A stretch of DNA of 64,000 bases from a virus (IMGVR_UViG_3300031519_004880:1-64000), one strand, 5' to 3'; shown: positions 1,117 to 33,825, counted from the first letter of the stretch. The notes: generated by a model not told the origin, from the sequence alone. Program-made: numbers and translations.

Positions 1117-1470
1117 ATGGACGAACGTCTTGAAAAAGCATTAGATTTTGCTAATTACATGACTACTCTTAATAACCAAAAAAGAGTAATAAAAGAGAAG
1201 TTTTACGAAAGTGCAATTCATTATCATAACGGTGGACAATTCTCCGTAAGCAAAGACCTAATGAACTTCTGTAATATGTTAGTACAAACAGGTCAAGAGT
1301 CTGTAGTGTTAATTGACGACAATGACATACCTGTAAAGGTTGAAAACGTAGAAGACTTTCTTAGCGATGTATTAGATATCTACTTTACAGCATCAAACGA
1401 ATACCTAACTGCATACGAAAAAATTAGAAGTCAGCGTAAGGTATCTGGACTTGTAGAATATGAGGAGTAA
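1117..1470 (+). CDS. Hypothetical phage protein
   Basis: 117 aa ORF with strong SD, overlaps next gene. Confidence 0.7.
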   Translation: MDERLEKALDFANYMTTLNNQKRVIKEKFYESAIHYHNGGQFSVSKDLMNFCNMLVQTGQESVVLIDDNDIPVKVENVEDFLSDVLDIYFTASNEYLTAYEKIRSQRKVSGLVEYEE

Positions 1471-2308
1471 AGGCGCATTAATCTTTGCTAGGAACAATGC
1501 CCAAGTTGATTATATTAAACAAGCTCATTATCTAGCAAAACGTATTACTAAATATCTTGGCATTCCAACAACTATTGTTACAGATAGTATTGAGTATATG
1601 AAAGAAACGTATACTGACTATGATACTGTATTTGATCAAGTAATTGAAGTTCCATTTGCTAGAGCTCTTAGCGAAAAGAGATACTTTGATGGATCAGGTG
1701 TGTACAAACAACTTGAATTTAAAAACGACCTCCGAACACAAGCATACGAACTAAGCCCATATGATGAAACTATCTTATTAGACAGTGATTACATTATTGC
1801 AAATGATGTGTTAACACATTGTTTTGATCAAGACAGTAATTTTTTAATTTATAAAGATGCAAGTGACTTAACAGGGTTTAGAGATAATACAGAATTCCTT
1901 AAAATTAGTGAAACTAGTGTAGACTTCTATTGGGCTACTGTTGTATTTTTTAGAAAAACAAAAGACAATAAAGTGTTCTTTGATCTAACTAAACATATAC
2001 AAGAAAACTGGCAACACTACAACAGTATTTTTCAAATTAACAAACCAACGTTTCGTAATGACTGGGTGTTTAGTATTGCCATACATATTATGAATGGTTA
2101 TCAAGATGGTGATTTTGCAAATAAGTTACCAGGTAAAAAATACTACACAGCAGACAGAGATATACTATGGAAATTAGAAGATGATAATTTTCTATTCTTA
2201 GTTGAGAAAGAACAACACCTTGGAGAATATACCCCATTGCGTATTAAAGGCAGTAGTGTACATGTAATGAATAAATTTAGTTTGAATAGGGTCATTGATA
2301 ATGCTTAA
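1460..2308 (+). CDS. GT-A fold nucleotide-sugar transferase (GT8/mannosyltransferase-like)
   Basis: YELSPYDETILLDSDY with DxD motif; paralogous to the next ORF. Confidence 0.7.
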   Translation: MRSKGALIFARNNAQVDYIKQAHYLAKRITKYLGIPTTIVTDSIEYMKETYTDYDTVFDQVIEVPFARALSEKRYFDGSGVYKQLEFKNDLRTQAYELSPYDETILLDSDYIIANDVLTHCFDQDSNFLIYKDASDLTGFRDNTEFLKISETSVDFYWATVVFFRKTKDNKVFFDLTKHIQENWQHYNSIFQINKPTFRNDWVFSIAIHIMNGYQDGDFANKLPGKKYYTADRDILWKLEDDNFLFLVEKEQHLGEYTPLRIKGSSVHVMNKFSLNRVIDNA

Positions 2309-3143
2309 TGGCTCTAAAGGCATCGTTTTACTGGCACAAAACAGCACACACGACTACGTAAAGCAGGCCTGTGTGCTGGCTATGAGTATCAGGGCTACTA
2401 ATGACACTAACGTCTGCTTGTTAACCGACGATAAAGTACCATCTAGGTATTTACACCTGTTTGATTGCATCAAACCTATACCATGGAACGATGATGCAAC
2501 TGATACAGAGTGGAAAGTAAACAACCGTTGGAAGTTATACCATGCAAGTCCGTATGATGAAACTATTGTAATGGACACTGATATGCTTGTATTACAAAAT
2601 ATTGATACATGGTGGGACTTTTTAGGCAACTACGAAATGTTCTATGTTAGTAAAGTCTACACATACCGAGGTAGTGTAGTAAATGATACTTACTATCGCA
2701 AGACATTTAAAGCAAATGACCTACCCAACTTGTATGCTGGCCTTCATTACTTTAAAAAGTGTGATTTTGCAAAGGAGTTTTATACATGGTTAGAACTAGT
2801 TATGAACAACTGGCAACTATTTTATGGAAAGTATGCACCTAAGCAATACCAAAACTGGTTAAGTGTTGATACTAGTACTGCAATCGTAGCAAAGATACTA
2901 GACTGCGAAGATAAGATAACAAACAAGAAAGTTTCCTTTCCAAGTTTTACACATATGAAGCCTAAGATACAAGGTTGGTATAATCCTAGCGAAACATGGC
3001 GTAGTAGAGTAGGCAGTTACCTAACAGATGACCTTGCATTGAAAATAGGCAATCATCAACAACAAGGCATTTTTCACTATACTGAAAAAGAGTTCTTAAC
3101 AGATGACAAAATTGCAAAATATGAAAAGGGTATTGGGATATGA
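2295..3143 (+). CDS. GT-A fold nucleotide-sugar transferase (paralog of 1460-2308)
   Basis: KLYHASPYDETIVMDTDM with DxD; FTHMKP late motif. Confidence 0.7.
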   Translation: MIMLNGSKGIVLLAQNSTHDYVKQACVLAMSIRATNDTNVCLLTDDKVPSRYLHLFDCIKPIPWNDDATDTEWKVNNRWKLYHASPYDETIVMDTDMLVLQNIDTWWDFLGNYEMFYVSKVYTYRGSVVNDTYYRKTFKANDLPNLYAGLHYFKKCDFAKEFYTWLELVMNNWQLFYGKYAPKQYQNWLSVDTSTAIVAKILDCEDKITNKKVSFPSFTHMKPKIQGWYNPSETWRSRVGSYLTDDLALKIGNHQQQGIFHYTEKEFLTDDKIAKYEKGIGI

Positions 3144-3730
3144 AACTAAGTTACGCACACCCAATACACCAACGTTATGTAATATTTGATCCGTCAAATG
3201 GTGACGTTCTTTCTTTGCCGAACTACAAACCAGAAGAAGGTAGTTATATTCCTGTAGAAGAAACGCAAGTTACAGGGTTACTTTCAGGTGCCGAGCCATT
3301 AAGCTATTACTATGTACACTACATTAAAAAAACTAAGACATATGAACTTAGACTACGAACTAATACTAGTATAGACAGCTATTTTGTTGACGACTTAATA
3401 TATGAAGTTCCAATGACTTTAATAGATAGTCCTGATATACATATTATACAAAACATTAACGATACTTGTTGGAAGATTACAATAGGTGGAGATCTAAAAG
3501 CAAATATATTAGCACAACGGGTTAGCTTTAAAAATACTTTGCATTTTAGTATAACTGAAAAGTCAGACCCAAACATATTACTAAAAACAATTTCATTTAA
3601 TTTCTCAGAACTACATGATACCAAATACGTTATTGTTCCGTTTGACAGTAAATTTGAATTTGACGCAAAACCAGTTAGTGTGTATACCATTAAAAACTTT
3701 GATAGATACATGTATGAGGTACAACAATGA
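3140..3730 (+). CDS. Hypothetical protein
   Basis: 196 aa, ATGA-type overlaps with both neighbours. Confidence 0.65.
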   Translation: MKLSYAHPIHQRYVIFDPSNGDVLSLPNYKPEEGSYIPVEETQVTGLLSGAEPLSYYYVHYIKKTKTYELRLRTNTSIDSYFVDDLIYEVPMTLIDSPDIHIIQNINDTCWKITIGGDLKANILAQRVSFKNTLHFSITEKSDPNILLKTISFNFSELHDTKYVIVPFDSKFEFDAKPVSVYTIKNFDRYMYEVQQ

Positions 3731-4611
3731 AAATTAACATAGCTGAACAAGACATTATCTTCTTATCGTACGATGAACCAAATTGCGAAAAGAACTATGT
3801 TGATTTAATCAATAAAGTTCCTTGGGCCAAACGTGTACATGGTGTAGATGGCAGTGATGCCGCACACAAGGCGTGTGCAGAACTTAGTGAAACTAAACAC
3901 TTTGTTACAGTTGATGGCGATACAGTTATTGATCCAGCATTTTTAAATGTAGTATTAGACTTAGATGCACTAGGAGTTGATGATGACTACCAATTTAGTT
4001 GGTGTGGTAATATCAACGTCAACGGATTAAAGTACGGTAACGGCAGTTTGAAAATGTGGACTAAAGATTTTGTAAAAAATATGAAAACACATGAAAACAC
4101 AGATGGTGGCGCAGACACTAGTATTGAATTTTGTTACTTTGATAATTATTATCAACTAAATGACAATTACAGTACTAGTATTATTAGTGCTACTCCACAT
4201 CAAGCATGGAGAGCAGGGTTCCGTGAAGGTGTTAAGATGAGTTTGAATAGAGGAGCCAAAGTTAAAGACATTACAAGTGAAACTTGGTGGCAAAACTATC
4301 AACGTTTGTTAATATGGATGCAAGTTGGTGCTGATGTAGACAACGGTATATGGAGTGTAGCAGGAGCCAGACAGGGGTGTTACATGACAACGTGTACTGA
4401 TTGGGATCACGTACAAACAAGAGACTTTAAATACTTAAACGAGTTATGGCTTTCTACAAAAGACAAAGAGCCAATGGAACTTGCTCAGCACTATGGTAAG
4501 ACACTTAACAGCGAACAAGGCTTACCAATCTCAACTAATCCATTTGACGAAGAACAAAGTCATTTTTTTAAAGAAGTGTATGTTAACACAGACAGGGTAT
4601 TACGCAAATGA
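3727..4611 (+). CDS. Glycosyltransferase-like protein (GT-A/GT2-like)
   Basis: DIIFLSYDEP...AHKACAELS...FVTVDGD (DxD); paralog at 11565. Confidence 0.6.
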   Translation: MKINIAEQDIIFLSYDEPNCEKNYVDLINKVPWAKRVHGVDGSDAAHKACAELSETKHFVTVDGDTVIDPAFLNVVLDLDALGVDDDYQFSWCGNINVNGLKYGNGSLKMWTKDFVKNMKTHENTDGGADTSIEFCYFDNYYQLNDNYSTSIISATPHQAWRAGFREGVKMSLNRGAKVKDITSETWWQNYQRLLIWMQVGADVDNGIWSVAGARQGCYMTTCTDWDHVQTRDFKYLNELWLSTKDKEPMELAQHYGKTLNSEQGLPISTNPFDEEQSHFFKEVYVNTDRVLRK

Positions 4612-4775
4612 GTAAATTAGAAGAAACTTGCGAAAATTGTCGTATAGAAATAAGCACAGACAGTATTGCAGTAGACAGTAGTACAGGAAACTTATACTTA
4701 GAGGCAGGAATATTAGTAGCAGTGATAGCAGTATTATACATTGGCAAGAAATTAGTGGACAAGTATATTAAATGA
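4608..4775 (+). CDS. Small membrane protein with CxxC (55 aa; not in the ORF track)
   Basis: MSKLEETCENCRIEISTDSIAVDSSTGNLYLEAGILVAVIAVLYIGKKLVDKYIK*; fills the gap with ATGA overlaps at both ends. Confidence 0.65.
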   Translation: MSKLEETCENCRIEISTDSIAVDSSTGNLYLEAGILVAVIAVLYIGKKLVDKYIK

Positions 4776-6145
4776 GCGAACTAGAAAAAATTAAAACAGT
4801 AATGCCTATTGTTGAGGCTGAAACTTCGCCAACATTTTGTTTAGCAAAGTGGCATCACACAACTATCTATCTTGCAACAGGTGAAACACATAGTTGTTAT
4901 CATCCTGCTCCTCATAAAATTCCTTTAGAAGAATTAAAAGATAATCCTAGTGCATTACACAACACAAAGCAAAAGAAAGCTGAACGTAGTGCAATGATGT
5001 GCGGAGATAAACCAGACGGTTGTAGTTACTGTTGGAAAATTGAAGCAATGGGCAAAGATTTTGTTAGTGATAGACATATTAAAACTACTAGTATCTATAC
5101 TGAGGAAAGAGTAGCGGAAATAAAACAAAAAGGGGCGGATTTTAACGTAAATCCTGAGTACATTGAAATTAGTTTTAGTAACGAGTGTAATTTTAAGTGC
5201 GGATATTGTCACCCTAAAGCTTCTAGTAGGTACTATAACGAAATAAAACAGCACGGACCATACAACATGTCAAGCACACACAGGCAAGACATTGATTGGT
5301 TTGAAATACAGAAGGACGAGGATACTAATCCATATGTAAAAGCGTTCTGGGAATGGTGGCCAGAGCTTAGTAAGACATTAAATATTTTACGTATCACAGG
5401 CGGTGAGCCATTAATGCATAAAAGTTTTTGGAACTTGTTAGAAAAATTAGACAACGATCCTAAACCTCATATCCAAATTGAAGTTAACAGTAACATGGGC
5501 GTTAAGCCTAAGCTAGTTGAAAGATTAACTACAACTGTGAAGCGTCTTAAAGCAGAAGGCAAAATTAAAAGTTTTAAACTATACACTAGTATTGATACTT
5601 GGGGACCAAGAGCTGAATATGCACGTACAGGGTTAGACATTAAGTTATGGGAACAAAACTTAGATTACTATCTAACTGAAACAAATTGGCCTGTGACATT
5701 TATGATTACATTTAATATATTTGGAGTAACTAGTTTTAATCAGTTACTAGAAAAAATATTAGAATGGCGTGAAAAATATAATAGCGATGATAATGCTACA
5801 CAATGGCAACGTATTAGGTTTGACACACCTCACCTAAAAGAGCCTAGCATATATGATATGAACATATTGCCCAAGGACGAATTTATACCATACATGGAAA
5901 AACATTTACAGTACATGCATGATAATCAAGACGACCAAAGCAGATCTAAATTTACAGAACTAGAAGTAGAAAAGTTTAAACGTGTTGTTGAGTACATGCG
6001 TACAACACATTACGAGCCACGTAAGTTAGAACAAGCACGTAAAGATTTCCATAACTGGTTTAAAGAATTTGATCGTAGGCGTGATTGTAGCCTAGTAGAA
6101 ACATTTCCTGAACTAGAGGAGTTTTACAATGACTGCGGAAAGTAG
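4772..6145 (+). CDS. Radical SAM protein with N-terminal twitch/SPASM-like domain
   Basis: N-terminal FCLAKW...SCYH...CSYCW; CNFKCGYC; ITGGEP. Confidence 0.9.
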   Translation: MSELEKIKTVMPIVEAETSPTFCLAKWHHTTIYLATGETHSCYHPAPHKIPLEELKDNPSALHNTKQKKAERSAMMCGDKPDGCSYCWKIEAMGKDFVSDRHIKTTSIYTEERVAEIKQKGADFNVNPEYIEISFSNECNFKCGYCHPKASSRYYNEIKQHGPYNMSSTHRQDIDWFEIQKDEDTNPYVKAFWEWWPELSKTLNILRITGGEPLMHKSFWNLLEKLDNDPKPHIQIEVNSNMGVKPKLVERLTTTVKRLKAEGKIKSFKLYTSIDTWGPRAEYARTGLDIKLWEQNLDYYLTETNWPVTFMITFNIFGVTSFNQLLEKILEWREKYNSDDNATQWQRIRFDTPHLKEPSIYDMNILPKDEFIPYMEKHLQYMHDNQDDQSRSKFTELEVEKFKRVVEYMRTTHYEPRKLEQARKDFHNWFKEFDRRRDCSLVETFPELEEFYNDCGK

Positions 6146-7322
6146 CACTTTTTGTATTCTTCCGTGGATACATTTCTACGCAAATCCAGACGGCAATGTA
6201 CTCCCTTGTTGCATTGGAGATTGGCGTCAACCTCTTGGAAATACTCGTAACAACACTATTCAAGAAATTTGGAATAGTGAAGAATATAAAAAGTTACGAC
6301 TAGCATTATTAAATAACGAAAAGCCTAGTACATGTACACAATGTTGGAAGCATGAAGAAGCAGGTTTAGAAAGTAATAGGATTGCACAAAACAATCGCTT
6401 CATAAAGCATATTAATATAAAAGACGAAACCAAAATTGACGGTTCGTTGGACTTAATGAAGTTGTTATACTTTGATGTGCGTTGGAGTAACATTTGTAAC
6501 TTTAAATGTAGAACGTGTAGTAGCACATACAGTTCAAGTTGGGCATTAGAAGATAATAAGAACGGCGAAAAGAAACCTGTATATATTTTTGCAGGCGGAG
6601 ACAGTAACGAAGATTTATTTAATCAGTTCAAACCTTATCTTAAAGATATACAAGATTATTATTTTGCAGGAGGCGAGCCTCTAATTACAGATAAGCATTA
6701 TGATATTTTAGATTACTTAATTGAAAATAAGAAGACTGATGCTATACTACAATACAACAGTAATTTAAGTAACTTATTCTTTAAAAAGAAAAGCATTACA
6801 GATTATTGGAATAATTTTAAGCATGTTGAAGTACGTGCAAGTATTGACGGCTATGGAAATAGAGGCGAATACATTAGAGAAGGTACTGACTGGCCTACAA
6901 TTGAACAAAACTTAAAAATTATTAAAGAAGAAAGCCCACATGTAATTATTAGTTTTAATTGTGTAGTAAGTGCATTTAATGTATTAACACTTGTAGACTT
7001 TTTAGAATACATGACAAACAAAGGCTTTGATGTAAACAACAGTACACTTTATAATATAGTTGAACCTAATTATTATAGCTTTAATGTATTAACAGACAAT
7101 CAACGACAAACAGCTATAGACAAGCTACAAGCATATATAAACACAATAACACATACTGAGCATAAAAGACACGTACAAGGTGTTATTGATTATTTGCATA
7201 AGTCAACATTTGATCAAAGTGCAAGTGACTTGTTTAAGTCTAAGAATATGCACTTTGATAAAATACGAAATCGATCGTTTGACGAAACGTTTCCAGAACT
7301 TAGTGATGTATTAACGGATTAA
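6129..7322 (+). CDS. Radical SAM protein with N-terminal twitch domain
   Basis: FCILPWIH...PCC...CTQC...E..G.ESNR; CNFKCRTC; FAGGEP. Confidence 0.9.
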   Translation: MTAESSTFCILPWIHFYANPDGNVLPCCIGDWRQPLGNTRNNTIQEIWNSEEYKKLRLALLNNEKPSTCTQCWKHEEAGLESNRIAQNNRFIKHINIKDETKIDGSLDLMKLLYFDVRWSNICNFKCRTCSSTYSSSWALEDNKNGEKKPVYIFAGGDSNEDLFNQFKPYLKDIQDYYFAGGEPLITDKHYDILDYLIENKKTDAILQYNSNLSNLFFKKKSITDYWNNFKHVEVRASIDGYGNRGEYIREGTDWPTIEQNLKIIKEESPHVIISFNCVVSAFNVLTLVDFLEYMTNKGFDVNNSTLYNIVEPNYYSFNVLTDNQRQTAIDKLQAYINTITHTEHKRHVQGVIDYLHKSTFDQSASDLFKSKNMHFDKIRNRSFDETFPELSDVLTD

Positions 7323-8166
7323 TTTGGTCGCTTTGTCGCATAACAGTTTCATATGTTAGCATATCCAACCAACGCTTTTTCATTTCATAAAGACTAAAGC
7401 CATCAGTTTGACTGTTTACAGCAGACTTCATTAACTTAACCCATTTAGTTTGAGCTTCCCCAACTATTCTGTCAGTTTCATCTTTCCACTCATGTTTAAA
7501 TATTTGCTTTAGATAATCGTAATGTTCAATTGGTGTTGGATGCCCGTCTTGGAATCTTTTATCAACAATTTTTCTATCTTTTACAAACTTAGCTTCTAGA
7601 TTGTTAGCCCATAGTGTTTGATAAATGCTAGGAAGTATTGGATCTATACTTTCGTTGTATAACTCAATAAGAGTTTTTAATTTTAATTCTACGTTAGGTT
7701 CAAGATTCCATTGATTAGGAAATTGAAAATCTAACATTTGTATCATGTGATGTTGTGTACGATGTTTAAGTAACTGATGAGCACTTTTAATTAGTGCAAA
7801 GTCTCTAACGTATGCACCGTACTCACTAAAAAAGTTTTGAATAAAGTCTTGAGAATACTCACTCTGTGAATATATGTTACCTGGAACTAGCCACCCGTCT
7901 TTCTCTGGCAGATATCTATCTTCTCTACATACATTAGTCCATTGCACAATAACTAAATCGTTGTGATCAAAGTTATAAACATTATCGGCCTGCATAATCA
8001 TATTATGAATATACTGATTACCTGCTCCACTACGGCCAAAGTTTCTAAACTCAGCATCGGGGAACTCAGTACCTAGTATGTTTGCCCATGTACCCCATAG
8101 ATACCCAGTAAAGCTACAGCCAAATGTAAAAATCCTTTTAGGATGATTATGTATTAGTTTTTTCAT
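7300..8166 (-). CDS. SGNH/GDSL-like esterase or acyltransferase
   Basis: FTFGCSFT (block I), NFGRSGAGN (block II), DGHPT (block V). Confidence 0.6.
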   Translation of the reverse strand: MKKLIHNHPKRIFTFGCSFTGYLWGTWANILGTEFPDAEFRNFGRSGAGNQYIHNMIMQADNVYNFDHNDLVIVQWTNVCREDRYLPEKDGWLVPGNIYSQSEYSQDFIQNFFSEYGAYVRDFALIKSAHQLLKHRTQHHMIQMLDFQFPNQWNLEPNVELKLKTLIELYNESIDPILPSIYQTLWANNLEAKFVKDRKIVDKRFQDGHPTPIEHYDYLKQIFKHEWKDETDRIVGEAQTKWVKLMKSAVNSQTDGFSLYEMKKRWLDMLTYETVMRQSDQINPLIHH

Positions 8167-9430
8167 TCTTTTTCTCTTTTAAATATTTAACCAAATCAAA
8201 CATAACGTTTTTAGTATGCTTTTCTTGTATCATAGTTTTAAGGTTGTGTACAGATATATCTGCAAATCTAAACTTCCACTTGATTGCTTTTTTAGGATCT
8301 AACTGTTGTAAGTGGTTTACTTGTTTAACTATTTGTGCTTTAAGTTTAACCCAACGCTTGTATGTATCTCTTTCATCATCAAAGCTATAATCAAATATTC
8401 CATCATATAGTTTATAGCCGTAGTCTTGTAATTTTTGATTACACTGATGCTGACCAAATATAACAAATGGTTGTAAATGGTATATGCTTCTAAATGTTTT
8501 TTCGCTCCAGAACAAACTAGTACCGTTCCAGTTTTCTGCAAATGTCTCGTTTACAACTTGAAATAATGTTTGCTGATGCAAGTAGCTGTTTAGACTCAAA
8601 GCATGATTAGTTATAAAATCCTCTGTATCAACTGTAAGAGGTAGAATAGTTTTGTTCCAAGTTTTTAAATCAGACCGACTAATAGGTGAACCTACCGGTA
8701 ACTGATAACTTTCCATATGCTTGATAGTTTTTTTATTAAATCTGTTATGACTTACTAATCCGTGATCGTATAAGTTACTATGAAAAATTTCAAATGCACT
8801 TAACGTCCGATGCGGTCTGTTAACACGACTTAGGCTTAAAAATAATTTACCTGTGTAACGTTTTTTTGTTTGTGCTATTTCATGTTCTAGTCGTTCTTGC
8901 AAAATAACTTCAACAGGTTTCTTTTCAATTTGTTGTCCAATAGCATCACCAGGCTTCGTAGCACCTGCTATTCCAAATATCATACTTTCAAAATTATTAA
9001 ATGTAACAACTTTAATTGAGTGTTCAATCTTGTGTTCCATATTATAACGTATGATGTTATCGTTGTCGTACATGTTTGAACTAAAGAAAATAATCTTTTC
9101 AGGATCTATTCTTGCTTGTTTACAACTAAAATATAGTACATCAAAAAACGGAGCATCGTGTATTGTACTAAAGCCTTCGGTACTAGCATCAAAAAAGAAA
9201 AAACATTTTGGATCTTTTCTTAATTGCGACTGAGCTCGATGTTTAACAAACTGAAAAAGATTAACATCTTTTTGCCATTTAGGATAACTGATTAACGCAT
9301 GTACAATAGACACATCATCAAAACCTTCTTGACTTAGTACTAATTGATCTTTTAACTTTTCAATCGACAGCGTAGTTTTTGGCTGTTGAATAAATTCGTT
9401 AAAAATGATAGAGTCTTTAATTAACTTCAT
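8147..9430 (-). CDS. Putative glycosyltransferase-like (GT-B-like C-terminus) protein
   Basis: FLSLSRVNRPHR...VVNET...SEKTFRSIYHLQPFVIFG, a motif set I associate with phage GT-like proteins. Confidence 0.45.
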   Translation of the reverse strand: MKLIKDSIIFNEFIQQPKTTLSIEKLKDQLVLSQEGFDDVSIVHALISYPKWQKDVNLFQFVKHRAQSQLRKDPKCFFFFDASTEGFSTIHDAPFFDVLYFSCKQARIDPEKIIFFSSNMYDNDNIIRYNMEHKIEHSIKVVTFNNFESMIFGIAGATKPGDAIGQQIEKKPVEVILQERLEHEIAQTKKRYTGKLFLSLSRVNRPHRTLSAFEIFHSNLYDHGLVSHNRFNKKTIKHMESYQLPVGSPISRSDLKTWNKTILPLTVDTEDFITNHALSLNSYLHQQTLFQVVNETFAENWNGTSLFWSEKTFRSIYHLQPFVIFGQHQCNQKLQDYGYKLYDGIFDYSFDDERDTYKRWVKLKAQIVKQVNHLQQLDPKKAIKWKFRFADISVHNLKTMIQEKHTKNVMFDLVKYLKEKKNEKTNT

Positions 9431-9444
9431 AAGGTATACTTTCC

Positions 9445-9464
9445 ATAAATACTACTATATTTAT
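9445..9464. promoter_or_regulatory. Overlapping divergent late promoters
   Basis: ATAAATA on + at 9445-9451 and on - at 9464-9458, between divergent genes. Confidence 0.6.
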
Positions 9465-9491
9465 GTACGCATATAATGATTGGAGAACAGA

Positions 9492-23214: not shown

Positions 23215-23650
23215 ACTTGTCTCCAAATGCACTAGTTAGGTCTGCATGTAATTTATCTATAATTTGTTTCTCGTTATATAGACCAACGTTGTCCCAGTCG
23301 ATCATATACATGTTCTCACCGTCAATTAGTATGTTACTTAGCACCCAGTCATAATGGGCGTATGGTGATGTTTCTTTAATAGTGTATAAGCAGAAGTCAT
23401 ATATCTTTTTAATAAATTGAGGAGTGTGTGCAAACTTACTTGCAGGAGTTCCAGGTACTTTATGATATTCAATAAACATACTAGTGTCGTTACTGCCCCA
23501 ATCAATAACCCAGCCTTCCATAACTTCATTTAAAATAATTATATGTTCTTCTAATCGTGCTTCTTCTACAGTAGACCATTCTTTACGGAATCGGTCTTCA
23601 AGTTCAAAAACTTTTCTACCTATTTCTTTATTTTCTTTAATTAATTCCAT
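23195..23650 (-). CDS. Minimal protein-kinase-like/APH-fold phosphotransferase
   Basis: HYDWVLSNILIDGENMYMIDWD = HxD-x4-N catalytic loop plus D metal motif; likely start ATG 23650. Confidence 0.7.
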   Translation of the reverse strand: MELIKENKEIGRKVFELEDRFRKEWSTVEEARLEEHIIILNEVMEGWVIDWGSNDTSMFIEYHKVPGTPASKFAHTPQFIKKIYDFCLYTIKETSPYAHYDWVLSNILIDGENMYMIDWDNVGLYNEKQIIDKLHADLTSAFGDKFDPAIL

Positions 23651-25686: not shown

Positions 25687-25691
25687 AAGTA

Positions 25692-26427: not shown

Positions 26428-26428
26428 T

Positions 26429-27898
26429 ATGAAAGACTGGAATAGCATAACTGTTGATAGGTACTATGAAAACCTAAGCATTGAAAACAACGTAGGTGTT
26501 GGTATACTAGACATCTCAAGAGATATTACAAATTCAACAGTACAGAAACGCACATTTGATATGACATACTTTTATATTAATCGTATGATTAAAATGGGCA
26601 TGTGTAGTTACGTTGGATTTCACAATCGTGTAGAAACAATACTTGAAGAAGCATTAAGTGCAGACAAAGAGTTTGCAATGGTAGCATGTCAAGGGTTGTT
26701 ATTACATAGAGGCCCAAGTTTACTACAACAAAGTGTAGAATATGCTGAAAACAATCCGCAGTTCTTTGTAGTTGGCCATATCATGGACAAAACAAAACAA
26801 CATTACATGACCAAAGGTGCTTATCCTGGATTACACAGGCAATATCTTTTTGTAAATTTAGCCAAGTGGGTTGAACTTGGTAAACCACCGTTTGATGAAA
26901 TAGGAGTCTTTTGGGATAGAAAGCCTGAACTACAAAATTATCAAATGAGTAAAGATTCTATTCACAGTACTTACACACCCAAGTGGGTTATTAATAACAA
27001 AGGAACAACAAAGTATGATACGACCAGTGATGGCAGTAATTGGATTGACATCGCTATGCGTAATAACATACGTATTGACAATTTAGATAATGATATGCGA
27101 GCTTGTAAGGTATTTTTATATCCATACATTGACTCGGATCTACTTGGAAAGATTTGGTACAACAAACAATCACCTTTAGTAGACGATTTAACTAACCAAA
27201 GCCAACGTGCTTGGATTAGAAAACAAGCATATCAAGAAGAAATAGAAAAGAACCGTGTGTATGCGTTTAACACAGAAACGTTAAGTAGTGAAGGTGTTAG
27301 AACTAATGGAAACCAAATTGACCATTTGTTTTCAGCATCAGCAGGATTTAAACCCCTTGCAATATTAAATGCAAACGGATTTCACAGTGGTACAACGGTA
27401 CATTACTTTGATTGGTGTGAAGCAAGTTTAAACTATAAGAAACATTTACTTGAAACGTGGGACGGCTATGACTTAGACAAGTGGTTGCTTGAACATGATT
27501 TAGATTATAACTTTAGTTCTACGTATAGGGGAACTTATAAAAAGTTCTGGGAACAAGAATTAAGAGAGTTTGGTGGATCGTTAGCATTTCAAAGGTTGTG
27601 GGATAGATACAGAAACCTAAAACATGAGTTTCATGTAATTGACCTTGTGTATGACAACACTAAACTGTTTGACATTATTAATAGCGTATATGGTACTAAA
27701 GTATTATGGACTACTAATATTTGGTCAAGTGAAATGCTTCATTGGAATGTAGAGCCTGAAGAGTTAGAACAGCAATGGTTAAAATTTGAACAGCAAATAC
27801 CTGACGATCTTGTACTATACGGACACGACTATGTTGCAGTTGACATGAATTCTAGAGTACGCAATGGCGTACAGTTGACTCACCCGAGGTACGCCTAA
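26429..27898 (+). CDS. Hypothetical protein (possible GT-like N-terminus and methyltransferase-like C-terminus)
   Basis: Likely start ATG 26429 after AAGGA; fold guess weak. Confidence 0.5.
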   Translation: MKDWNSITVDRYYENLSIENNVGVGILDISRDITNSTVQKRTFDMTYFYINRMIKMGMCSYVGFHNRVETILEEALSADKEFAMVACQGLLLHRGPSLLQQSVEYAENNPQFFVVGHIMDKTKQHYMTKGAYPGLHRQYLFVNLAKWVELGKPPFDEIGVFWDRKPELQNYQMSKDSIHSTYTPKWVINNKGTTKYDTTSDGSNWIDIAMRNNIRIDNLDNDMRACKVFLYPYIDSDLLGKIWYNKQSPLVDDLTNQSQRAWIRKQAYQEEIEKNRVYAFNTETLSSEGVRTNGNQIDHLFSASAGFKPLAILNANGFHSGTTVHYFDWCEASLNYKKHLLETWDGYDLDKWLLEHDLDYNFSSTYRGTYKKFWEQELREFGGSLAFQRLWDRYRNLKHEFHVIDLVYDNTKLFDIINSVYGTKVLWTTNIWSSEMLHWNVEPEELEQQWLKFEQQIPDDLVLYGHDYVAVDMNSRVRNGVQLTHPRYA

Positions 27899-28545
27899 TG
27901 GAAATGAAGCGTTATATAGAAAAGCATGACGAAGCTAACTTAGGTTGGGCAGTTAAAAAACTATTCAAAGTTGACATTGATAAATTACGTACTTGGTATG
28001 ATAATTTAGAAAACAACTATAGTGATTGGAAGTTTGTTATAGGCGAACAACACCACATATGGCAATTTCCTATTAGCGATCCTGAAGCAAAGACAGGACA
28101 TCGTCTAATGGACGACACAGCATACTATACACTATGTTGGAACAGCGATGAAACAGGACCTAAGCCATTTGAACAAGGGTGTGCAAAGCCAGAGTATCGA
28201 GATGATGACAACGATCAACTTAACCCTAGACAATGTTTTAGTGGCTATGCACTAGACGTTGTAAACAGTTTACCTATGCGTAGTAAAAAATGGTTAGTAA
28301 CAATTCATACACCAGGCACTAAACTAATTACACACCAAGACGCTCCAGATAAACTTCGTGTACATATTCCTATACACACTAATGCAGATAGTAATTGGAT
28401 TATTGCAGGAGAAGAATATCATATGGAACCAGGCTGGGCATATGTTGTTAACACAACTATTCCACACAGCGTAGAAAACAAAGGTACAACAGACAGGATA
28501 CATTTATATGGAAAGATTTGGACAGATGATTGCCGTAAGTTATAG
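27898..28545 (+). CDS. AspH-like 2OG-Fe(II) oxygenase
   Basis: PGTKLITHQD...RVHIPI...PHSVEN...RIHL. Confidence 0.85.
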   Translation: MEMKRYIEKHDEANLGWAVKKLFKVDIDKLRTWYDNLENNYSDWKFVIGEQHHIWQFPISDPEAKTGHRLMDDTAYYTLCWNSDETGPKPFEQGCAKPEYRDDDNDQLNPRQCFSGYALDVVNSLPMRSKKWLVTIHTPGTKLITHQDAPDKLRVHIPIHTNADSNWIIAGEEYHMEPGWAYVVNTTIPHSVENKGTTDRIHLYGKIWTDDCRKL

Positions 28546-28954
28546 TAAAAAAGACTTTGTATCTAAAATGCAAAGCGAAAACATCACCGATACAACAGTT
28601 GAAGATACTAATGACTATTACATATGTATTGATTCAACTGGCGGCCCAGACAGCGAACCATACTTTACTCAATTTCATCCTAACGTATTAAGTTTATGTT
28701 TTGATGATGTTAGTGAAGATCAAACTAACTGGGGTGAAGATATAAAAGCATACTACACAGCCGTTGCACCAACACTAACACAAATTCGACATATTTCATA
28801 TTTCCTTAAAGAAGCAGTTGGGACAATACATGTACATTGTATGAAAGGCGAGTCACGTAGTAAAGCCGTTGCAGATTATGTAAATAACACTAGAATTAAA
28901 CACGATGGAAAGTTTGCGTACAACATCATAAGGGATATACTAGATGAGCTTTAA
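28508..28954 (+). CDS. Cys-based (PTP/dual-specificity) phosphatase-like
   Basis: IHVHCMKGESRS = HCX5R; FDD acid loop; start may be ATG 28526. Confidence 0.8.
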   Translation: MERFGQMIAVSYSKKDFVSKMQSENITDTTVEDTNDYYICIDSTGGPDSEPYFTQFHPNVLSLCFDDVSEDQTNWGEDIKAYYTAVAPTLTQIRHISYFLKEAVGTIHVHCMKGESRSKAVADYVNNTRIKHDGKFAYNIIRDILDEL

Positions 28955-29495
28955 TGTAAAAGAAATAACAATCCCTATAGAGTATACTGACTTTAGAAGT
29001 TATTATATAAATGTATGCACTAACTATCCCCACCTTAAGTTTACTAATGTACAAGATACTGTTGACTCAGAAAAGCACATCATCGACGGCGTGTATGGTT
29101 GGGGAATACAAAGTAATTTAGAAGATCTCACTGTACCTTGTCCGCCTTGGAACGTACACAAAGCAAGAAGCGACAATTATAGAGATACTGAATTATCATT
29201 TGGAATTATTAAAAAGTTAAAAGCGTTATTTCCTGAAGCAAGGCAGTTTAGTTTAAGCGGACATCCACCAGGCACAATTATTCAACAACACACTGATACT
29301 GATAGATATCTTAAAGTACATATTCCAATCATAGCAAATGCAGAATCGTTCTTTGAGTTTGGTACTAAAAGGTATTGCTTAAAAGTAGGAAAAGCATATC
29401 TAATAAATACTACTAGGTTACACGGAACTAATAATAAAGGTTCTACAGATAGAGTACATTTATTTTTTAAAGTACCGGCAAAGAATTATATATGA
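28944..29495 (+). CDS. AspH-like 2OG-Fe(II) oxygenase
   Basis: PPGTIIQQHTD...KVHIPI...LHGTNN...RVHL. Confidence 0.85.
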   Translation: MSFNVKEITIPIEYTDFRSYYINVCTNYPHLKFTNVQDTVDSEKHIIDGVYGWGIQSNLEDLTVPCPPWNVHKARSDNYRDTELSFGIIKKLKALFPEARQFSLSGHPPGTIIQQHTDTDRYLKVHIPIIANAESFFEFGTKRYCLKVGKAYLINTTRLHGTNNKGSTDRVHLFFKVPAKNYI

Positions 29496-30220
29496 GACAC
29501 TTACAAGCTAAACATATAACAGATGTCGATACGTTGTTTGATAGTCTCGAATGGGATATAATCGAGCTAGACTTTTCTATTGATTCAGATAGTCTACAAC
29601 ACTACTATACACAACTCAAAGAACAACTATCTCATTTGCAGTTTAGCTTTACTTCTAAAGAATATCTTAGACCAGACATATACGAAACATTTAAAAAAGA
29701 TAATCGTGTAGGTAATTATCTTGGAAACATTCAAGGATGGAGTGTTAGCTGGCCTATAGAACGAGATGTACCTTGTCCGAGTAAATCACAAGCTAATATT
29801 GACATGTATCCTGAGTTACAAGATTTAGATGAAGCAAAGTTCTATTACGATTGTGTACCAATGAAAGTTTATAAGTTTGGTATTTTAAACAGCATGATAG
29901 AAACGCTAACCTTACCAGCTCTAAGACAAATGCTAATAGCATTGCACCCACCAGGATTAAAAGTTGATACACATACTGACGGAAAGACGAGGAAACTACA
30001 TGTACCATTTTATACTAATAAAGATGCAGTCTTTACATTTGGTGAAAACAGAGAACGCAAATACCATATGGAATTGGGCAAAGGATATATAATTAATACT
30101 CTAGTTCCGCATGGAACAGAAAATAACGGAAATACTGAAAGAGTACACTTATTGTCTAGAGTTGACGATTCGTTTATGCATTCACTATTATCCTTAAACT
30201 GCAATATAGCAGATAAATAA
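29492..30220 (+). CDS. AspH-like 2OG-Fe(II) oxygenase
   Basis: PPGLKVDTHTD...KLHVP...PHGTEN...RVHL. Confidence 0.85.
   Translation: MRHLQAKHITDVDTLFDSLEWDIIELDFSIDSDSLQHYYTQLKEQLSHLQFSFTSKEYLRPDIYETFKKDNRVGNYLGNIQGWSVSWPIERDVPCPSKSQANIDMYPELQDLDEAKFYYDCVPMKVYKFGILNSMIETLTLPALRQMLIALHPPGLKVDTHTDGKTRKLHVPFYTNKDAVFTFGENRERKYHMELGKGYIINTLVPHGTENNGNTERVHLLSRVDDSFMHSLLSLNCNIADK
30213..30219 (+). promoter_or_regulatory. Late promoter
   Basis: ATAAATA followed by SD AGGAG and ATG 30239. Confidence 0.6.
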
Positions 30221-30238
30221 CAGTAACAGGAGATAATA

Positions 30239-31483
30239 ATGAGCAACACATATTTTACACAGGTATTAGACGAACCATATCACTTAGGAAATGGCGAATT
30301 TTTGTCAGTAATTACTAATGGTAAGGCACGTCACGAAGGCGAAGAAACAAGAGATTTTAACAAAGACGCAGGAGCAAGAGCAGGATTACTTAGAATAAAC
30401 GCTGATAAAACTACGTTTGTAGACTTTTTTGATAAAAGCGATAACGGTGATAGATATCGTGGTGTTGCAGTAGTAGGTAATACAGCATATGTAATGCGTA
30501 CACAAAAAGACAAAGTAGATAGCATCATTAGAGTTGCGGCAGTAGATTTAACAACTAATGAAGTTACAATGATTGAAGAAAAAGGTGTAAACGTACACGG
30601 CTCAGAAACTCCTAAAACATTCTGTGGACACTTTAACTTTGGTCGACCAATTACAGTTGGTACTAAAATTATTTACCCACCGGTTATGAGTGGAATGATT
30701 ATTGTGTTTGATACTGTTGCTAATACATTTACTGTACATGAAACCGGAGAGAAGTTTGCTTCTATCCATAGTGTGTATGTGGAATCATTAAATGAAGTTG
30801 TGTTTTTTCCATATGGTAAAACAACTGATATGTTGATAACATTAGATCTTGAAACAAACAAAATTACACCACACACAGCACCAACTAAAGGTGCATTTTA
30901 TCATGTCAACACTAACGGCAACAAAGCAGTTGGTGCTCCATTAATTATGGATGAAACTACAGAGTTTAACTTCTGGGTATACGATGGTGATACTGTTAAG
31001 TCAGTTGCTTATGATTCGTCTAGTACAGATGACATGGGCGGACAGATGGGTTTCAAATACGGAACTATGAATGGTAACACACTATTAACACATACTTGTT
31101 GGGAAGGCTGTAAAGAGTTTGTATCATTAAACTTAGATACACTTGCTATTGATAGCTTTGAAACTAATGAGTCACTAGGTAGTAAGCCAGTTATTAATGC
31201 TGGAGACGTTTACTTGTTTCCGTCAATACAAAACCCAAGCATGGTAAATCCAACAACTAAAGTTTTTAAAGTTGAAGGCAATGCAATTAATGAAGTTATG
31301 GACTTAGGTACTGCAAACATTACTTCAGGATCAATTAACGATACTGATAGTGTTACAATGTTAGCACCTTACAAGTTTGATCTTAGTGATGCTGGCCTTG
31401 CTGGTGATATGTCTATTGTAGACCTTGATGCTAAAACTTCCAAACTTGTTCCTGTTAGTCTAAGTTTAGAAACTTATAATTAA
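30239..31483 (+). CDS. Divergent beta-propeller/beta-rich protein
   Basis: Repeats GTKIIYPP, NEVVFFPYG, GDVYLFPS resembling 20868 and 21991. Confidence 0.5.
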   Translation: MSNTYFTQVLDEPYHLGNGEFLSVITNGKARHEGEETRDFNKDAGARAGLLRINADKTTFVDFFDKSDNGDRYRGVAVVGNTAYVMRTQKDKVDSIIRVAAVDLTTNEVTMIEEKGVNVHGSETPKTFCGHFNFGRPITVGTKIIYPPVMSGMIIVFDTVANTFTVHETGEKFASIHSVYVESLNEVVFFPYGKTTDMLITLDLETNKITPHTAPTKGAFYHVNTNGNKAVGAPLIMDETTEFNFWVYDGDTVKSVAYDSSSTDDMGGQMGFKYGTMNGNTLLTHTCWEGCKEFVSLNLDTLAIDSFETNESLGSKPVINAGDVYLFPSIQNPSMVNPTTKVFKVEGNAINEVMDLGTANITSGSINDTDSVTMLAPYKFDLSDAGLAGDMSIVDLDAKTSKLVPVSLSLETYN

Positions 31484-31495
31484 TAGGGTTAGCCT

Positions 31496-32680
31496 ATGAA
31501 AATTAATATTGTAGGTGGTGGAAGTGCAGGATGGCTAACTGCCGCATATCTTGCAACAAAAACTGATCACAACGTGACAGTAATAGAAAGTCCTAATATT
31601 CCTATTGTTGGAGTAGGGGAAAGCACTATTCCTAGTATTTCAACCTTCTTAGATGAAATCGGTGTTACTGAACAAGATCTATTTGAAGGATGCGGAGCAG
31701 TTCGTAAATATACAATCCAACACAATAACTGGAATGGTGAAAACGAATCATGGTATCACCATTTTTGTTTTGATGAAACAGAACACGACGAACAGTTAAA
31801 ATGGATGAAGGATTATATTAAGCCTGATAAAGAATGGCGTTGGGCATACCACTTAGATGCAACTCGCTTAGGTAATGTTATTCGTGATAAATCTGCTATT
31901 CCTAACGGTGTTAAACATATAAGCGATACAGTTGTATCTGTTGACACTGATGATAACGGTATTACAGGTATAAAATGCGAAAACGGATATTATACGGCAG
32001 ATCTATATATTGATTGTACAGGATTTAAAAGTTTACTTAGAGGTAAACTAGGTGTTGAATATAAAAAACATAAAGCATTAATCAATGATTATGCAGTATG
32101 TGGACCAGGAGCATATTTAGAAGGCGAACAACCATTACCATATACACAAACTTTTAGTATGGACTACGGTTGGCGTTGGCGTGTAAGCATACAAGAACGC
32201 ACAGGTAACGGATATGCATTTAATTCTAAGATGATTAATGTTGAAGATGCTAAAAAAGAATTTATTGCAAAAACACCTGGTATTAAAAAAGATAAAGTTT
32301 TTGTAGTTCCTATTAAAAACAGTTATAATCCAGAACCTTGGAAAAAGAATGTATTAAGTTTAGGACTAAGTTGCGGATTTTTAGAACCTCTTGAAGCAAC
32401 AGGTTTGTTTTTAGTACACGGTCCTGTAATGATGTTAGAAAAACTTTTAGATGATCCTAAAGGAAGCAAAAAGTTTAATCGAGTATGGACTGCACTATAC
32501 GAACACTTAGCAGATTTCTTATCAATGCATTATAAGACTAGCAAATTAGATCATACAGAGTACTGGAAAAGTTTTGATAAAGTTAACAATGTTAAATTGC
32601 CTGCAACAAAACAGGTGTTATTTTGCAAATATAGTTTTAGAACTTTAGCGAATGCTCGCGAGCTTCCGTATACTTCATAA
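31496..32680 (+). CDS. Flavin-dependent (tryptophan-halogenase family) halogenase, short form
   Basis: IVGGGSAG, GVGESTIP, AVRKYTI (position of catalytic Lys), LYIDCTGF, WRWRVS (WxWxIP variant), GFLEPLEATG. Confidence 0.9.
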   Translation: MKINIVGGGSAGWLTAAYLATKTDHNVTVIESPNIPIVGVGESTIPSISTFLDEIGVTEQDLFEGCGAVRKYTIQHNNWNGENESWYHHFCFDETEHDEQLKWMKDYIKPDKEWRWAYHLDATRLGNVIRDKSAIPNGVKHISDTVVSVDTDDNGITGIKCENGYYTADLYIDCTGFKSLLRGKLGVEYKKHKALINDYAVCGPGAYLEGEQPLPYTQTFSMDYGWRWRVSIQERTGNGYAFNSKMINVEDAKKEFIAKTPGIKKDKVFVVPIKNSYNPEPWKKNVLSLGLSCGFLEPLEATGLFLVHGPVMMLEKLLDDPKGSKKFNRVWTALYEHLADFLSMHYKTSKLDHTEYWKSFDKVNNVKLPATKQVLFCKYSFRTLANARELPYTS

Positions 32681-33167
32681 CATCAATACGCCACAAATTC
32701 TGTGGAACATTATACAACATTATCTCTTTTTCAAGAGTCCATATACCACGTTTTGCTAATAGTGGCATCATAACATCGTTCATGCGTTTACTTTTGCCGC
32801 CATCGTCATTTATATTAGTACTAATGTAAAGTTCGGCATTAGGGTTTTGTTCTAACGCCCATTTAATTTGTAAATATAATAACTGGCTTAATTGTATTCC
32901 TGTTTTAAAAATATCTCTACCTGTGCCTAGTGTATACCCAGGAAGTTGAGCTCCGCGGAATAAACATCTATATGCATCTGGACTAACTTCAGGAAGTTCG
33001 TGTGTACCAGCAATACTAACAATTTTATTATCAACTAGAGCCGCAGTCCATAACGGACAGCTATTCCATTTCATTTTTTCAAGTGAGGTGTTATTACTGT
33101 ACTGTTGTGAGTTGCAAAATTCTTGAACAAGAGGTGTGTCGTCTTTGGTTAGTAATCTAAAACGCAT
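32637..33167 (-). CDS. GNAT-like acyltransferase (putative)
   Basis: WTAALVDNKIVSIAG...YRCLFRGAQLPGY pattern typical of the GNAT beta3-beta4 region. Confidence 0.5.
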   Translation of the reverse strand: MRFRLLTKDDTPLVQEFCNSQQYSNNTSLEKMKWNSCPLWTAALVDNKIVSIAGTHELPEVSPDAYRCLFRGAQLPGYTLGTGRDIFKTGIQLSQLLYLQIKWALEQNPNAELYISTNINDDGGKSKRMNDVMMPLLAKRGIWTLEKEIMLYNVPQNLWRIDVMKYTEAREHSLKF

Positions 33168-33825
33168 TTTTCCAAGTACGTCCTTTTGCTGTCTTTACTC
33201 TATGTGAAAATGTTTTAGTTTCCATATCAAATATATCACCTGTAGAGCGACCGTTAATAATACATTCGCCTAACTTAGAAGTAGCAGTTAACGGATTAAA
33301 CATTACATGCGTATCCATTGTGTTAATAGTATTAAAGTCAAAATTAGGACTATCATACCCAATCATTACCGGCGGTGGAAATTCAGTCATGCCATACCAA
33401 TTAGCTACAACTTGTACACCACGTTCTTTAAACGCATCAATAAAACTTTGTTCTACTTTATTTGAACCTGTAGCCATGTAACGTACACAACTCATATCTA
33501 AGTCTTTAAATCCCTTTGTGTGTTGTAGTAGTTCTAAGTGACGCGGTATTAACGCTATAAACGTCGGTTTAACGCTATTAAAAAGCTCAGGGTAGGTGTG
33601 AGCATTAAATGCTGTACAAACGTACTGTGCGCCGCTTATATAAGCTGGCAGAGCGGTTATAGTGTAGTGTGCTATAGTGTTTGCAGGAAACACATCAAGT
33701 ACTATATCGTCTTTAGTTAGACCAATTTCGTCAACACTTTTTTGGGCACAACGATTAATGTACGACCATTTGTGCGATACAATCTTAGGTTCGTCTGTAC
33801 TTCCAGATGTGAATAGCGTAAGCAT
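33157..33825 (-). CDS. Minimal adenylate-forming (AMP-binding/ANL) enzyme
   Basis: FTSGSTDEPK (A3), YGMTE (A5), STGDIF (A7); only 222 aa. Confidence 0.85.
   Translation of the reverse strand: MLTLFTSGSTDEPKIVSHKWSYINRCAQKSVDEIGLTKDDIVLDVFPANTIAHYTITALPAYISGAQYVCTAFNAHTYPELFNSVKPTFIALIPRHLELLQHTKGFKDLDMSCVRYMATGSNKVEQSFIDAFKERGVQVVANWYGMTEFPPPVMIGYDSPNFDFNTINTMDTHVMFNPLTATSKLGECIINGRSTGDIFDMETKTFSHRVKTAKGRTWKNAF

Follow-up and report, generated by a model that had tools for sequence, protein, structure and literature searches.

A conserved island of glycosyltransferase and radical SAM genes beside the fiber genes of a marine jumbo phage, and its possible role in building a virion glycan

A large enzyme island lies between structural genes

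We analyzed a stretch of viral DNA of 64,000 nucleotides (IMGVR_UViG_3300031519_004880, positions 1 to 64,000; hereafter the window), which makes up the initial 64 kb of a linear IMG/VR contig of 90 kb (G000). At positions 1117-33825, between two sets of structural genes, it carries an island of genes encoding glycosyltransferases (GTs), radical S-adenosylmethionine (SAM) enzymes (rSAMs) and other tailoring enzymes, which is the subject of this study. An earlier note, made from the sequence alone, had drawn up an inventory of this island, and our analysis confirms it overall. CheckV gives the 90-kb contig a completeness of 25%, which implies a genome of around 350 kb. The DNA polymerase (PolB) of the contig is nearest to those of Sinorhizobium phage Phosso (50%), Atu_ph07 (45%) and Rak2-like jumbo myoviruses (42%). 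A megablast search with 44 kb of the window found no DNA-level match to deposited phages. We compared the island with those of three relatives, G001 (267.8 kb, 75% complete), G003 and G004, using tblastn and blastp. Genes are named by their start coordinate in the window (g172, g1117, etc.), and (-) indicates the minus strand.

As the earlier note had proposed, there are structural genes on both flanks. The window opens with the 3' end of a tail-fiber gene (1..167, +), the orthologue of a 496-aa fiber of G001, and its stop codon is 4 nt before g172 (172..1065, +). The latter encodes a virion structural protein of the baseplate/fiber module, present in one to three tandem copies in related phages. 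It is 25% identical, across 97% of its length, to EST35_0123 of phage PA5oct, which is marked "ESI-MS/MS" in its GenBank record. EST35_0123 is the last gene of the PA5oct baseplate/fiber operon and is not followed by GT genes. We regard g172 as a candidate glycan acceptor. Because the window begins at the contig end, the remainder of the left flank was read from G001, which is 85-92% identical. There, a virion structural protein of 4723 aa and three tail fibers that are paralogs (676, 603 and 496 aa) precede the island. On the right, the fiber-like gene g33870 (33870..35243, -), which carries an Mtd_N domain, closes the island in all relatives, and replication genes lie beyond it. The Mtd_N domain (43 bits) is at the very start of the protein; it is the N-terminal domain of the tropism determinant of Bordetella phage BPP-1.

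Within the island, 29 of the 34 same-strand gene junctions overlap, in line with the translational coupling noted before for most genes. For around 20 island proteins, there was no usable match in PHROGs or Pfam, even at an E-value of 10. Profile searches of the PDB with g26372, g8147, the repeat proteins, g11565, g10661 and g32637 returned nothing significant.

Glycosyltransferases and a sugar-nucleotide enzyme

The island encodes four GT-A enzymes and one possible GT-B. The AlphaFold2 model of g11565 (pLDDT 88.7) has a GT-A fold, and its DxD motif (D57xD59) is invariant, as expected of a GT-A enzyme. In VIA comparisons, Z-scores were 11.4 to B4GALNT1 (rmsd 2.8, 135 residues), 10.3 to WrtF, and then 10.0; Foldseek matched the model to RmlT, WrtF and SunS with E-values of about 1e-4. 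Structural matches also include two viral proteins, PBCV-1 A64R (Z 8.5) and Mimivirus R655 (Z 8.2). Nucleotidyltransferases share the fold of g11565 (Z 9-10.6), and its transferase activity is a prediction from the model. The paralog g3727 (3727..4611, +) is 30% identical to g11565 and has the DxD motif in common with it (alignment A6); its assignment to the fold follows from the g11565 model. This protein has a homologue in Bdellovibrionota, 34-35% identical.

The two other GT-A genes, g1460 and g2295 (1460..3143, +), are paralogs resembling GT8 or nucleotide-diphospho-sugar transferases and share the conserved motif SPYDETIxxDxD. Neither gave a Pfam match even at an E-value of 10, which leaves them outside GT8 (PF01501). 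An atlas lead (0.95-0.96 to the Glyco_transf_8 and Nucleotid_trans clusters) and the DxD motif suggest that they probably work like GT8 enzymes, and we do not file them as members of that family. The possible GT-B, g8147, lies with an SGNH-like gene, g7300, on the minus strand (7300..9430). Its AlphaFold model has a pLDDT of 57 and weak GT-B matches (Foldseek E-value of about 1e-3, VIA Z of at most 7.8). Hence, among the four to five GT-like proteins counted earlier, g11565 and g3727 stand as GT-A enzymes, the atlas lead and motif make a weaker case for g1460 and g2295, and g8147 depends on a weak model. The Ugd assignment, on the other hand, is upheld: g9480 (9480..10664, +) has the N-terminal, central and C-terminal domains of the NDP-sugar 6-dehydrogenase family (64.4, 65 and 30.7 bits, none of them below its cut-off) and the catalytic-cysteine motif GGACHPRD.

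Nine radical SAM enzymes of three types

Searches with Pfam and NCBIfam and a check of the motif recovered the nine intact rSAM genes of the original inventory, each with CxxxCxxC. They start at 4772, 6129, 12196, 14020, 14987, 18863, 19772(-), 23637(-) and 24700(-). Five are N-terminal-twitch (N-twitch) enzymes of the NF033640 family, two are rSAM-SPASM proteins (14020, 24700), and two are short (12196, 18863). The curated cut-off of NF033640 (N_Twi_rSAM) is 170 bits, and the five island proteins span 221-419 bits, with scores over the full model of 419 for g14987, 385 for g6129, 328 for g4772, 245 for g19772 and around 223 for g23637. In these proteins, a four-cysteine N-terminal auxiliary-cluster motif precedes the CxxxCxxC core, and the cysteines at alignment positions 14, 32, 90, 93, 146, 150 and 153 are invariant across the five paralogs. 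The rSAM-SPASM proteins match both PF04055 and PF13186 above the gathering scores (32.9 and 27.5 bits for g14020, 31.3 and 25.7 bits for g24700), the SPASM domain being at the C-terminal end.

The NF033640 family is catalogued in NCBIfam and has no characterized member. Literature searches on NF033640, and on rSAM together with O-antigen, found nothing. The nearest solved structures match the island N-twitch enzymes only over the generic rSAM core, and the weak PDB hits of the rSAM search include BtrN and the cytosylglucuronate decarboxylase BlsE. All island rSAMs are far below the cut-offs of the curated NCBIfam peptide-maturase models. In marine metagenomes, g14987 has 4047 homologues at E-values of at most 1e-10. 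The ancestral N-twitch copy is g4772, with orthologues in the Ralstonia jumbo phage RsoM2USA (ORF349) and in a bacterium. The phylogenetic tree places g4772, together with ORF349, beside a bacterial orthologue, and g14987 beside its own (support of 100/100 and 96/97). The paralogs are thus functionally distinct enzymes of old origin that were transferred as a group.

The rSAM genes are spread over several gene groups. Next to each other are the N-twitch genes g4772 and g6129 (4772..7322, +). Positions 11565..16312 (+) hold a sub-module of five enzymes and a small open reading frame (ORF): the GT-A g11565, the short rSAM g12196, ORF 13188, the SAM methyltransferase g13418, the rSAM-SPASM g14020 and the N-twitch g14987. 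The second short rSAM, g18863, is a paralog of g12196 and follows a distant AspH-like cupin, g18210 (18210..19768, +; assigned by radical SAM matches and hhalign, respectively). A minus-strand operon (19772..25686) contains the rSAM-SPASM gene 24700, the N-twitch gene 23637, a mini-kinase (23195), two repeat proteins (21991 and 20868) and the N-twitch gene 19772. A rSAM-SPASM gene followed by an N-twitch gene thus occurs twice in the island, in opposite orientations (14020-16312, +; 23637-25686, -), and the adjacent pair is also kept in gene clusters of Bdellovibrionota (L210:19-2639, L211:17562-19918). This suggests that the pair is a two-enzyme unit.

The island is syntenic across related phages

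The order of the island genes is kept across G001, G003 and G004 at 45-92% protein identity. Around 25 genes, from g172 via g26372 to g33870, are universal, and both their order and content are kept down to around 50% identity. Variation is seen in three places: the 16312-17579 cassette, present in only some relatives; the repeat proteins 20868 and 21991, absent from G003 and G004; and the right arm (27898-33825), which is missing from G003 and has been replaced in G004. When IMG/VR was scanned with g14987, 80 loci at 64-100% identity came up, and they share the gene order, again down to around 50% identity. A second scan, with a GT8-like profile, gave at least 508 related stretches, of which we inspected the best 80 loci as far as the kept stretch reaches. 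Where reached, the left arm had the same composition in all these 80 loci: fibers, one to three copies of g172, g1117, two GT8-like genes, g3140 and a GT-A gene. The acidic 117-aa protein g1117 (1117..1470, +) is always between g172 and the GTs, and g3140 (3140..3730, +) is a conserved member of the ancestral core. In the best 80 loci, the GT-A gene is nearly always followed by an N-twitch rSAM, and what lies further downstream is lineage-specific.

RsoM2USA carries a collinear nine-gene version of the island, ORF355-347, with identities of 32-44%. These ORFs correspond to a g172-like gene, g1117, g1460, g2295, an ORF at the position of g3140, g3727, g4772, g11565 and g13418. The match of g172 to ORF355 is C-terminal, and the ORF at the g3140 position has no detectable similarity to g3140. 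The adjoining ORF356, ORF359 and ORF361 have been assigned to virion bands by mass spectrometry (PMC8504454). Our refined reading is that the ancestral core comprises four GT-A enzymes, an N-twitch rSAM and a methyltransferase, and that the conserved chemistry is centered on a glycan. The protein cross-linking, halogenation and acylation envisaged in the earlier note draw mainly on the right arm, which is absent from G003 and replaced in G004. The note's claim of one coordinated system, rather than independent genes, is sustained by synteny in many contigs and in a cultured phage: gene order is kept and linked to fiber genes, and random assortment was not seen. Since the GT core lies beside g172 in phages of hosts as unrelated as those of the marine and Ralstonia phages, its conservation favors a phage-encoded acceptor over host-specific lipopolysaccharide (LPS).

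One stretch differs in its divergence. The proteins from g16312 to g18210 (16312-18866) share 88-97% identity with their G001 counterparts and 92-100% with those of another contig (L013), whereas the flanking genes are only 79-84% identical. This stretch looks either recently exchanged or unusually constrained.

A promoter motif shared with fiber and baseplate genes

We scanned the whole 90-kb contig for the motif ATAAATA, counting sites in sense orientation at most 60 nt upstream of a gene, and found that 16 of the 19 sites are placed in this way. The genes headed by the motif include g33870, a gene for a 1186-aa baseplate protein, the divergent pair g8147 and g9480, and g30239. It is kept at orthologous positions in G001, G003 and G004, and it also heads the 496-aa fiber gene running into g172. 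The divergent promoter region (9431..9479) has ATAAATA at 9446 (+) and 9458 (-), at the same place in the three relatives. Among the individual boxes, TTAAATA at 25692 heads the minus-strand operon, CATAAATAC at 35272 heads g33870, and the variant TAAATAGT at 1083, upstream of g1117, is kept in G003 and G004. The last of these overlaps a near-consensus sigma-70-type site (1069-1097, +; TTGACT-17-TATAAT, 11/12), which is found in G001 and absent from G003 and G004. Sigma-70-like promoters and intrinsic terminators were not enriched. The T4 late box TATAAATA was considered as the promoter and rejected, since there is one site in the window against around 10 expected, a depletion of about ten-fold. 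As for the TAAATA promoters listed earlier, those at 9446/9458 and 25692 and the box before 30239 were retrieved, and the one given at 33831 is absent.

These results make ATAAATA a candidate core of the late promoter in this phage clade. As it is shared with the fiber and baseplate genes and conserved with them, the island is very probably co-regulated with the structural genes, and we infer that it is expressed late.

A bacterial counterpart in marine Bdellovibrionota

A scan of genomes with a single protein gave mostly spurious SPASM matches in Lachnospiraceae, yet led to two metagenome-assembled genomes (MAGs) of marine Bdellovibrionota (Halobacteriovoraceae and Bacteriovoracaceae). Each has 11-12 copies of NF033640 above the cut-off, and there are none in 14 control genomes. 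All five enzymes of the 11565-16312 sub-module have clustered homologues in these bacteria (35-51% identity). The homologues in the MAG clusters are those of g12196 (49-51%), g14987 (42-43%), g14020 (36-38%), g3727 (34-35%), g13418 (35-36%) and g4772 (37%). Between them lie genes for three GT2 glycosyltransferases, for proteins with multiple transmembrane (TM) segments and for a weak AspH-like protein. Several of the NF033640 genes of these MAGs (G006:C8:141058-152083 and G007:C9:77432-100139; L209-L212) lie in a GT-rich cluster of around 25 kb that also encodes QueC-like PP-loop and FAD amine-oxidase-like proteins.

The bacterial cluster and the island have in common a GT-A enzyme, a methyltransferase, the three rSAM types and the adjacent rSAM-SPASM/N-twitch pair, at 35-51% identity. 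The cluster differs in having the three GT2 genes and the multi-TM proteins, and our queries recovered from it no g172, GT8-like genes, g8147, kinase or g26372. In the two MAGs, these queries likewise found no g26372, g8147, g2295 or kinase. The linkage of this rSAM set to GT2 genes in bacteria points to a glycan as the substrate of the island enzymes.

Oxygenases, halogenase and other tailoring genes

The earlier note listed six AspH-like hydroxylases. Five of them (17579, 25726, 27898, 28944 and 29492) score 27.5-50.4 bits on PF05118, above its cut-off of 22.6 bits; the sixth, g18210, is placed by profile-profile comparison only (hhalign, probability 76%, E-value 2e-5). The iron-binding motif HxD...H is present in all six. 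The first belongs to the variable cassette (16312..18223, +), with g16312 and g16887, the latter having a weak methyltransferase-like match. The second is followed by g26372 (25726..27898, +), a clade-specific orphan of 489 aa whose real start is probably 26429. Among the matches listed, this orphan family is confined to this phage clade. An atlas lead, according to which g26372 is fused to AspH elsewhere, was not borne out: none of the homologues was longer, and of the 175 with a similar length, the 120 listed all have around 350-510 aa and no Pfam domains.

The three other AspH-like genes are in the right arm (27898..33825), together with the CX5R protein 28508, the repeat protein 30239, the halogenase 31496, g32637(-) and g33157(-). 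The halogenase call is well founded, as g31496 (31496-32680) scores 299 bits on PF04820, the family of flavin-dependent halogenases. It has the GGGSAG motif, and its second motif, W-R-W-R-V-S, is a variant of WxWxIP. Halogenases with around 32% identity to it occur in 77 phage records and are likewise embedded in structural regions; in HTVC008M, a halogenase with 32% identity lies between two terminase genes (L213:13983-15377). The gene is absent from G003. It is the sole island gene with a distant allele in G001 (46%; L083:13142-14302), its neighbors being 82-92% identical, which suggests a replacement of alleles between the window and G001. The adenylating enzyme is also recovered, in the form of an AMP-binding core fragment of 222 aa, g33157 (33157-33825, -; 68 bits). 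Its G001 counterpart has exactly 222 aa and 82% identity. As this length is kept in G001, the core-only form is conserved and is not an artefact of truncation.

Other calls were supported in part. For the two SGNH proteins, motif blocks are seen in both, with no match to hidden Markov models or the PDB: in g10661 (10661..11572, +), a putative SGNH-type esterase/acyltransferase, the three blocks GDSN, GxN and DxxH are all invariant, and g7300 has the variants GCS, GxN and DGH. The methyltransferase g13418 has a marginal match (E-value 0.007). The mini-kinase g23195 has invariant HxDxxxxN and DWD motifs and marginal matches to APH, RIO and LanKC (E-values of 0.02-0.2), the best PDB match of its profile being a LanKC-type kinase domain (0.016). 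The CX5R phosphatase-like protein g28508 combines its motif with a marginal DSPc match (E-value 0.012). The three proteins described as beta-propellers (g20868, g21991 and g30239) do have a repeat of around 48 aa and weak mutual similarity; the propeller fold itself goes beyond these features. The GNAT call for g32637(-) found no support, as there was no match in Pfam or PDB profile searches.

The absence of a polyketide synthase or nonribosomal peptide synthetase backbone, as stated before, is borne out by the domain searches. Membrane machinery is likewise absent: none of the island proteins has a 19-residue window with a mean hydropathy of at least 1.9, and there is thus no hydrophobic segment of the kind expected for Wzx/Wzy-, ABC- or synthase-type polysaccharide export. 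Two small ORFs complete the left half of the island. The left arm has a single long gap, filled by an ORF of 55 aa (4608-4775, +) that encodes a CxxC motif and, at the C-terminus, a hydrophobic helix; this ORF was found only in the near-identical contigs L091 and L092, and in G001, G003 and G004 g3727 directly abuts g4772. The small ORF g13188 is kept in the closest relatives only, and in G001 an unrelated ORF takes its place.

A putative pathway and its alternatives

We give about an even chance to the hypothesis that the island encodes a late, cytoplasmic pathway that builds and tailors a glycan and that is tied to the fiber module of a clade of marine myoviruses of around 350 kb. That it is a glycan pathway at all is likely; for a virion acceptor, the odds are even at best, and perhaps a little below. 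In such a pathway, host UDP-sugars would be used, and the Ugd-like enzyme would yield a uronic acid donor. The four GT-A transferases (two GT8-like, two with a GT2-like fold), possibly with the GT-B, would put sugars on a soluble acceptor, most likely g172 or the adjacent fibers; no lipid carrier, flippase or polymerase is encoded. The sugars may then be edited by the N-twitch, rSAM-SPASM and short rSAM types, the first two occurring as conserved gene pairs, and further by the SAM methyltransferase, the AspH-like 2-oxoglutarate (2OG) oxygenases, the SGNH acyl-handling enzymes and the small kinase. The variable right arm, with its oxygenases, halogenase, phosphatase-like protein and mini-adenylase, could add lineage-specific decoration. 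The lack of membrane-type hydrophobic segments in the island proteins excludes a lipid-carrier polysaccharide route and implies that the acceptor is soluble or peripheral. That this acceptor is a virion protein is something we infer from gene linkage alone, and it is the least certain step. More tentatively, and with less than even odds, one may think of a radical-SAM-dependent virion glycan in a marine jumbo phage clade of global abundance and, in a reduced version, in the soil phage RsoM2USA, where three rSAM families, 2OG oxygenases, the kinase and sometimes the halogenase rewrite the sugars of the tail fibers and thereby tune host recognition.

Several observations weigh against a virion glycan. 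The GT8, AspH/LpxO-like, WaaP-like-kinase and Ugd families are typical of the modification of LPS core and lipid A. The bacterial counterpart contains membrane proteins, and hence makes a cell-surface polymer and not a protein glycan. No island rSAM has a characterized close relative, so that their sugar chemistry is a guess. The GT8-like, GT-B, SGNH, kinase and phosphatase calls come from motifs, from atlas leads or from a weak model, and the term "late" from a motif shared with structural genes. Finally, the host recognition clusters (HRCs) of pelagimyophages and cyanomyophages, published as non-syntenic and hypervariable regions of T4-like phages of around 150 kb, have been read as modifying the host O-chain (Zaragoza-Solas et al. 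2020, PMC7029224). One alternative is that the soluble GTs, the kinase, the AspH/LpxO-like oxygenases, Ugd and the SGNH enzymes remodel the host envelope, acting on LPS core, lipid A or a surface glycan at the inner membrane face, and so block superinfection or the sticking of progeny to debris. We find this unlikely. The match of the GT8, Ugd and PF05118 families to LPS-core toolkits, the published reading of the HRCs (PMC7029224) and the resemblance of the bacterial cluster to a surface-polysaccharide locus, with its GT2 and multi-TM proteins, are all in its favor, but the island lacks any membrane protein, flippase, polymerase or Und-P transferase. Moreover, LPS acceptors vary by host, yet phages with unrelated hosts keep the GT core beside g172; fiber and baseplate genes have the promoter motif in common with the island; and the left arm starts 4 nt after a fiber gene.

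The same enzymes might instead produce a free natural product, i.e., a highly tailored, soluble, sugar-derived molecule resembling aminoglycosides or nucleosides, used in infection or packaged. For the twitch-type rSAMs characterized so far, free metabolites derived from sugars are frequent substrates, BtrN and BlsE are among the weak PDB matches, and Ugd, the kinase, the methyltransferase, the halogenase and the mini-adenylase resemble a secondary-metabolite toolkit. Yet, four to five GTs without an aglycone-forming enzyme, an exporter or a resistance gene fit this poorly, and the strict linkage to g172 and the fibers would be left unexplained, which makes it quite improbable in our view. We see even smaller chances for a pathway akin to that of peptides made on ribosomes and then modified post-translationally (RiPPs), with rSAMs, AspH, kinase and phosphatase modifying a peptide, or the side chains of a protein, while the GTs have a secondary part. 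The ancestral core is dominated by GTs, the bacterial homologues lie among GT2 genes, no NCBIfam peptide-maturase model is reached, and we found no conserved small ORF resembling a precursor (g13188 and the 4608 ORF are limited to close relatives); this outweighs the common action of SPASM enzymes and AspH on peptides and the LanKC-type domain that is the best PDB match of the kinase profile (E-value 0.016). The least probable option, which we hardly entertain, is a loose collection of independent auxiliary genes in a plastic region. While the right arm and some cassettes vary, and the G001 halogenase allele is 46% identical among neighbors at 82-92%, the order and content of around 25 genes are kept to around 50% identity, 29 of 34 junctions overlap, promoters are shared, and RsoM2USA is collinear.

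Comparison with known systems and implications

The virion glycan pathway proposed here can be compared with several described systems. The HRC also is a large island in the structural region, placed after a giant VrlC-like virion protein and fibers, and its genes likewise include GT8 enzymes, a UDP-glucose dehydrogenase, AspH and cassettes of radical SAM genes (PMC7029224). The present island differs in belonging to jumbo phages of around 350 kb with a PolB nearest to those of Phosso and Atu_ph07, and in having a strongly syntenic core of around 25 genes and nine rSAM genes. No orthologue of the island N-twitch rSAMs was found in deposited cyanophage and pelagiphage genomes. One published T4-like genome of environmental origin has 12 rSAM genes (PMC5332604). 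As to virions, those of mycobacteriophages (capsid or tail) are glycosylated by phage GTs (Freeman 2023, as cited in PMC12619734). The statement in the earlier note that no comparable pathway is known was therefore too strong, given the HRCs (PMC7029224) and, as far as the citing article describes it, this phage virion glycosylation.

In chloroviruses and mimiviruses, it is capsids and fibrils that are glycosylated. In these virus-encoded systems, as in the putative one proposed here, soluble GT-A enzymes act in the cytoplasm, without lipid carriers, and their genes lie beside structural genes. The known systems have a few GTs and sugar-nucleotide enzymes, and in none of them are there rSAMs, several 2OG oxygenases, a kinase or a halogenase. 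To our knowledge, no pathway with the rSAM and 2OG load of this island has been characterized. Viral flavin-dependent halogenases, of which VirX1 is one, are common in marine myophages and also lie within structural modules there (the "tryptophan halogenase" of cyanophages, HTVC008M), but the halogenase of the island is, unlike these, an accessory and swappable member of a larger island. What is new here is the syntenic core of around 25 genes, the nine-gene ancestral core with a cultured representative, the counterpart in a bacterial glycan cluster and the shared promoter motif.

If the proposed reading is true, these phages carry a pathway of around 38 genes that elaborates their own receptor-binding apparatus, which would add a non-genetic layer of host range in abundant ocean viruses. 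In the more tentative form given above, it would also be the first radical-SAM-dependent virion glycan pathway, with a new carbohydrate chemistry common to predatory Bdellovibrionota. NF033640 and two other uncharacterized rSAM families gain a biological context and, probably, carbohydrates as their substrate class. The presence of the ancestral core in the cultured phage RsoM2USA makes the question directly testable.

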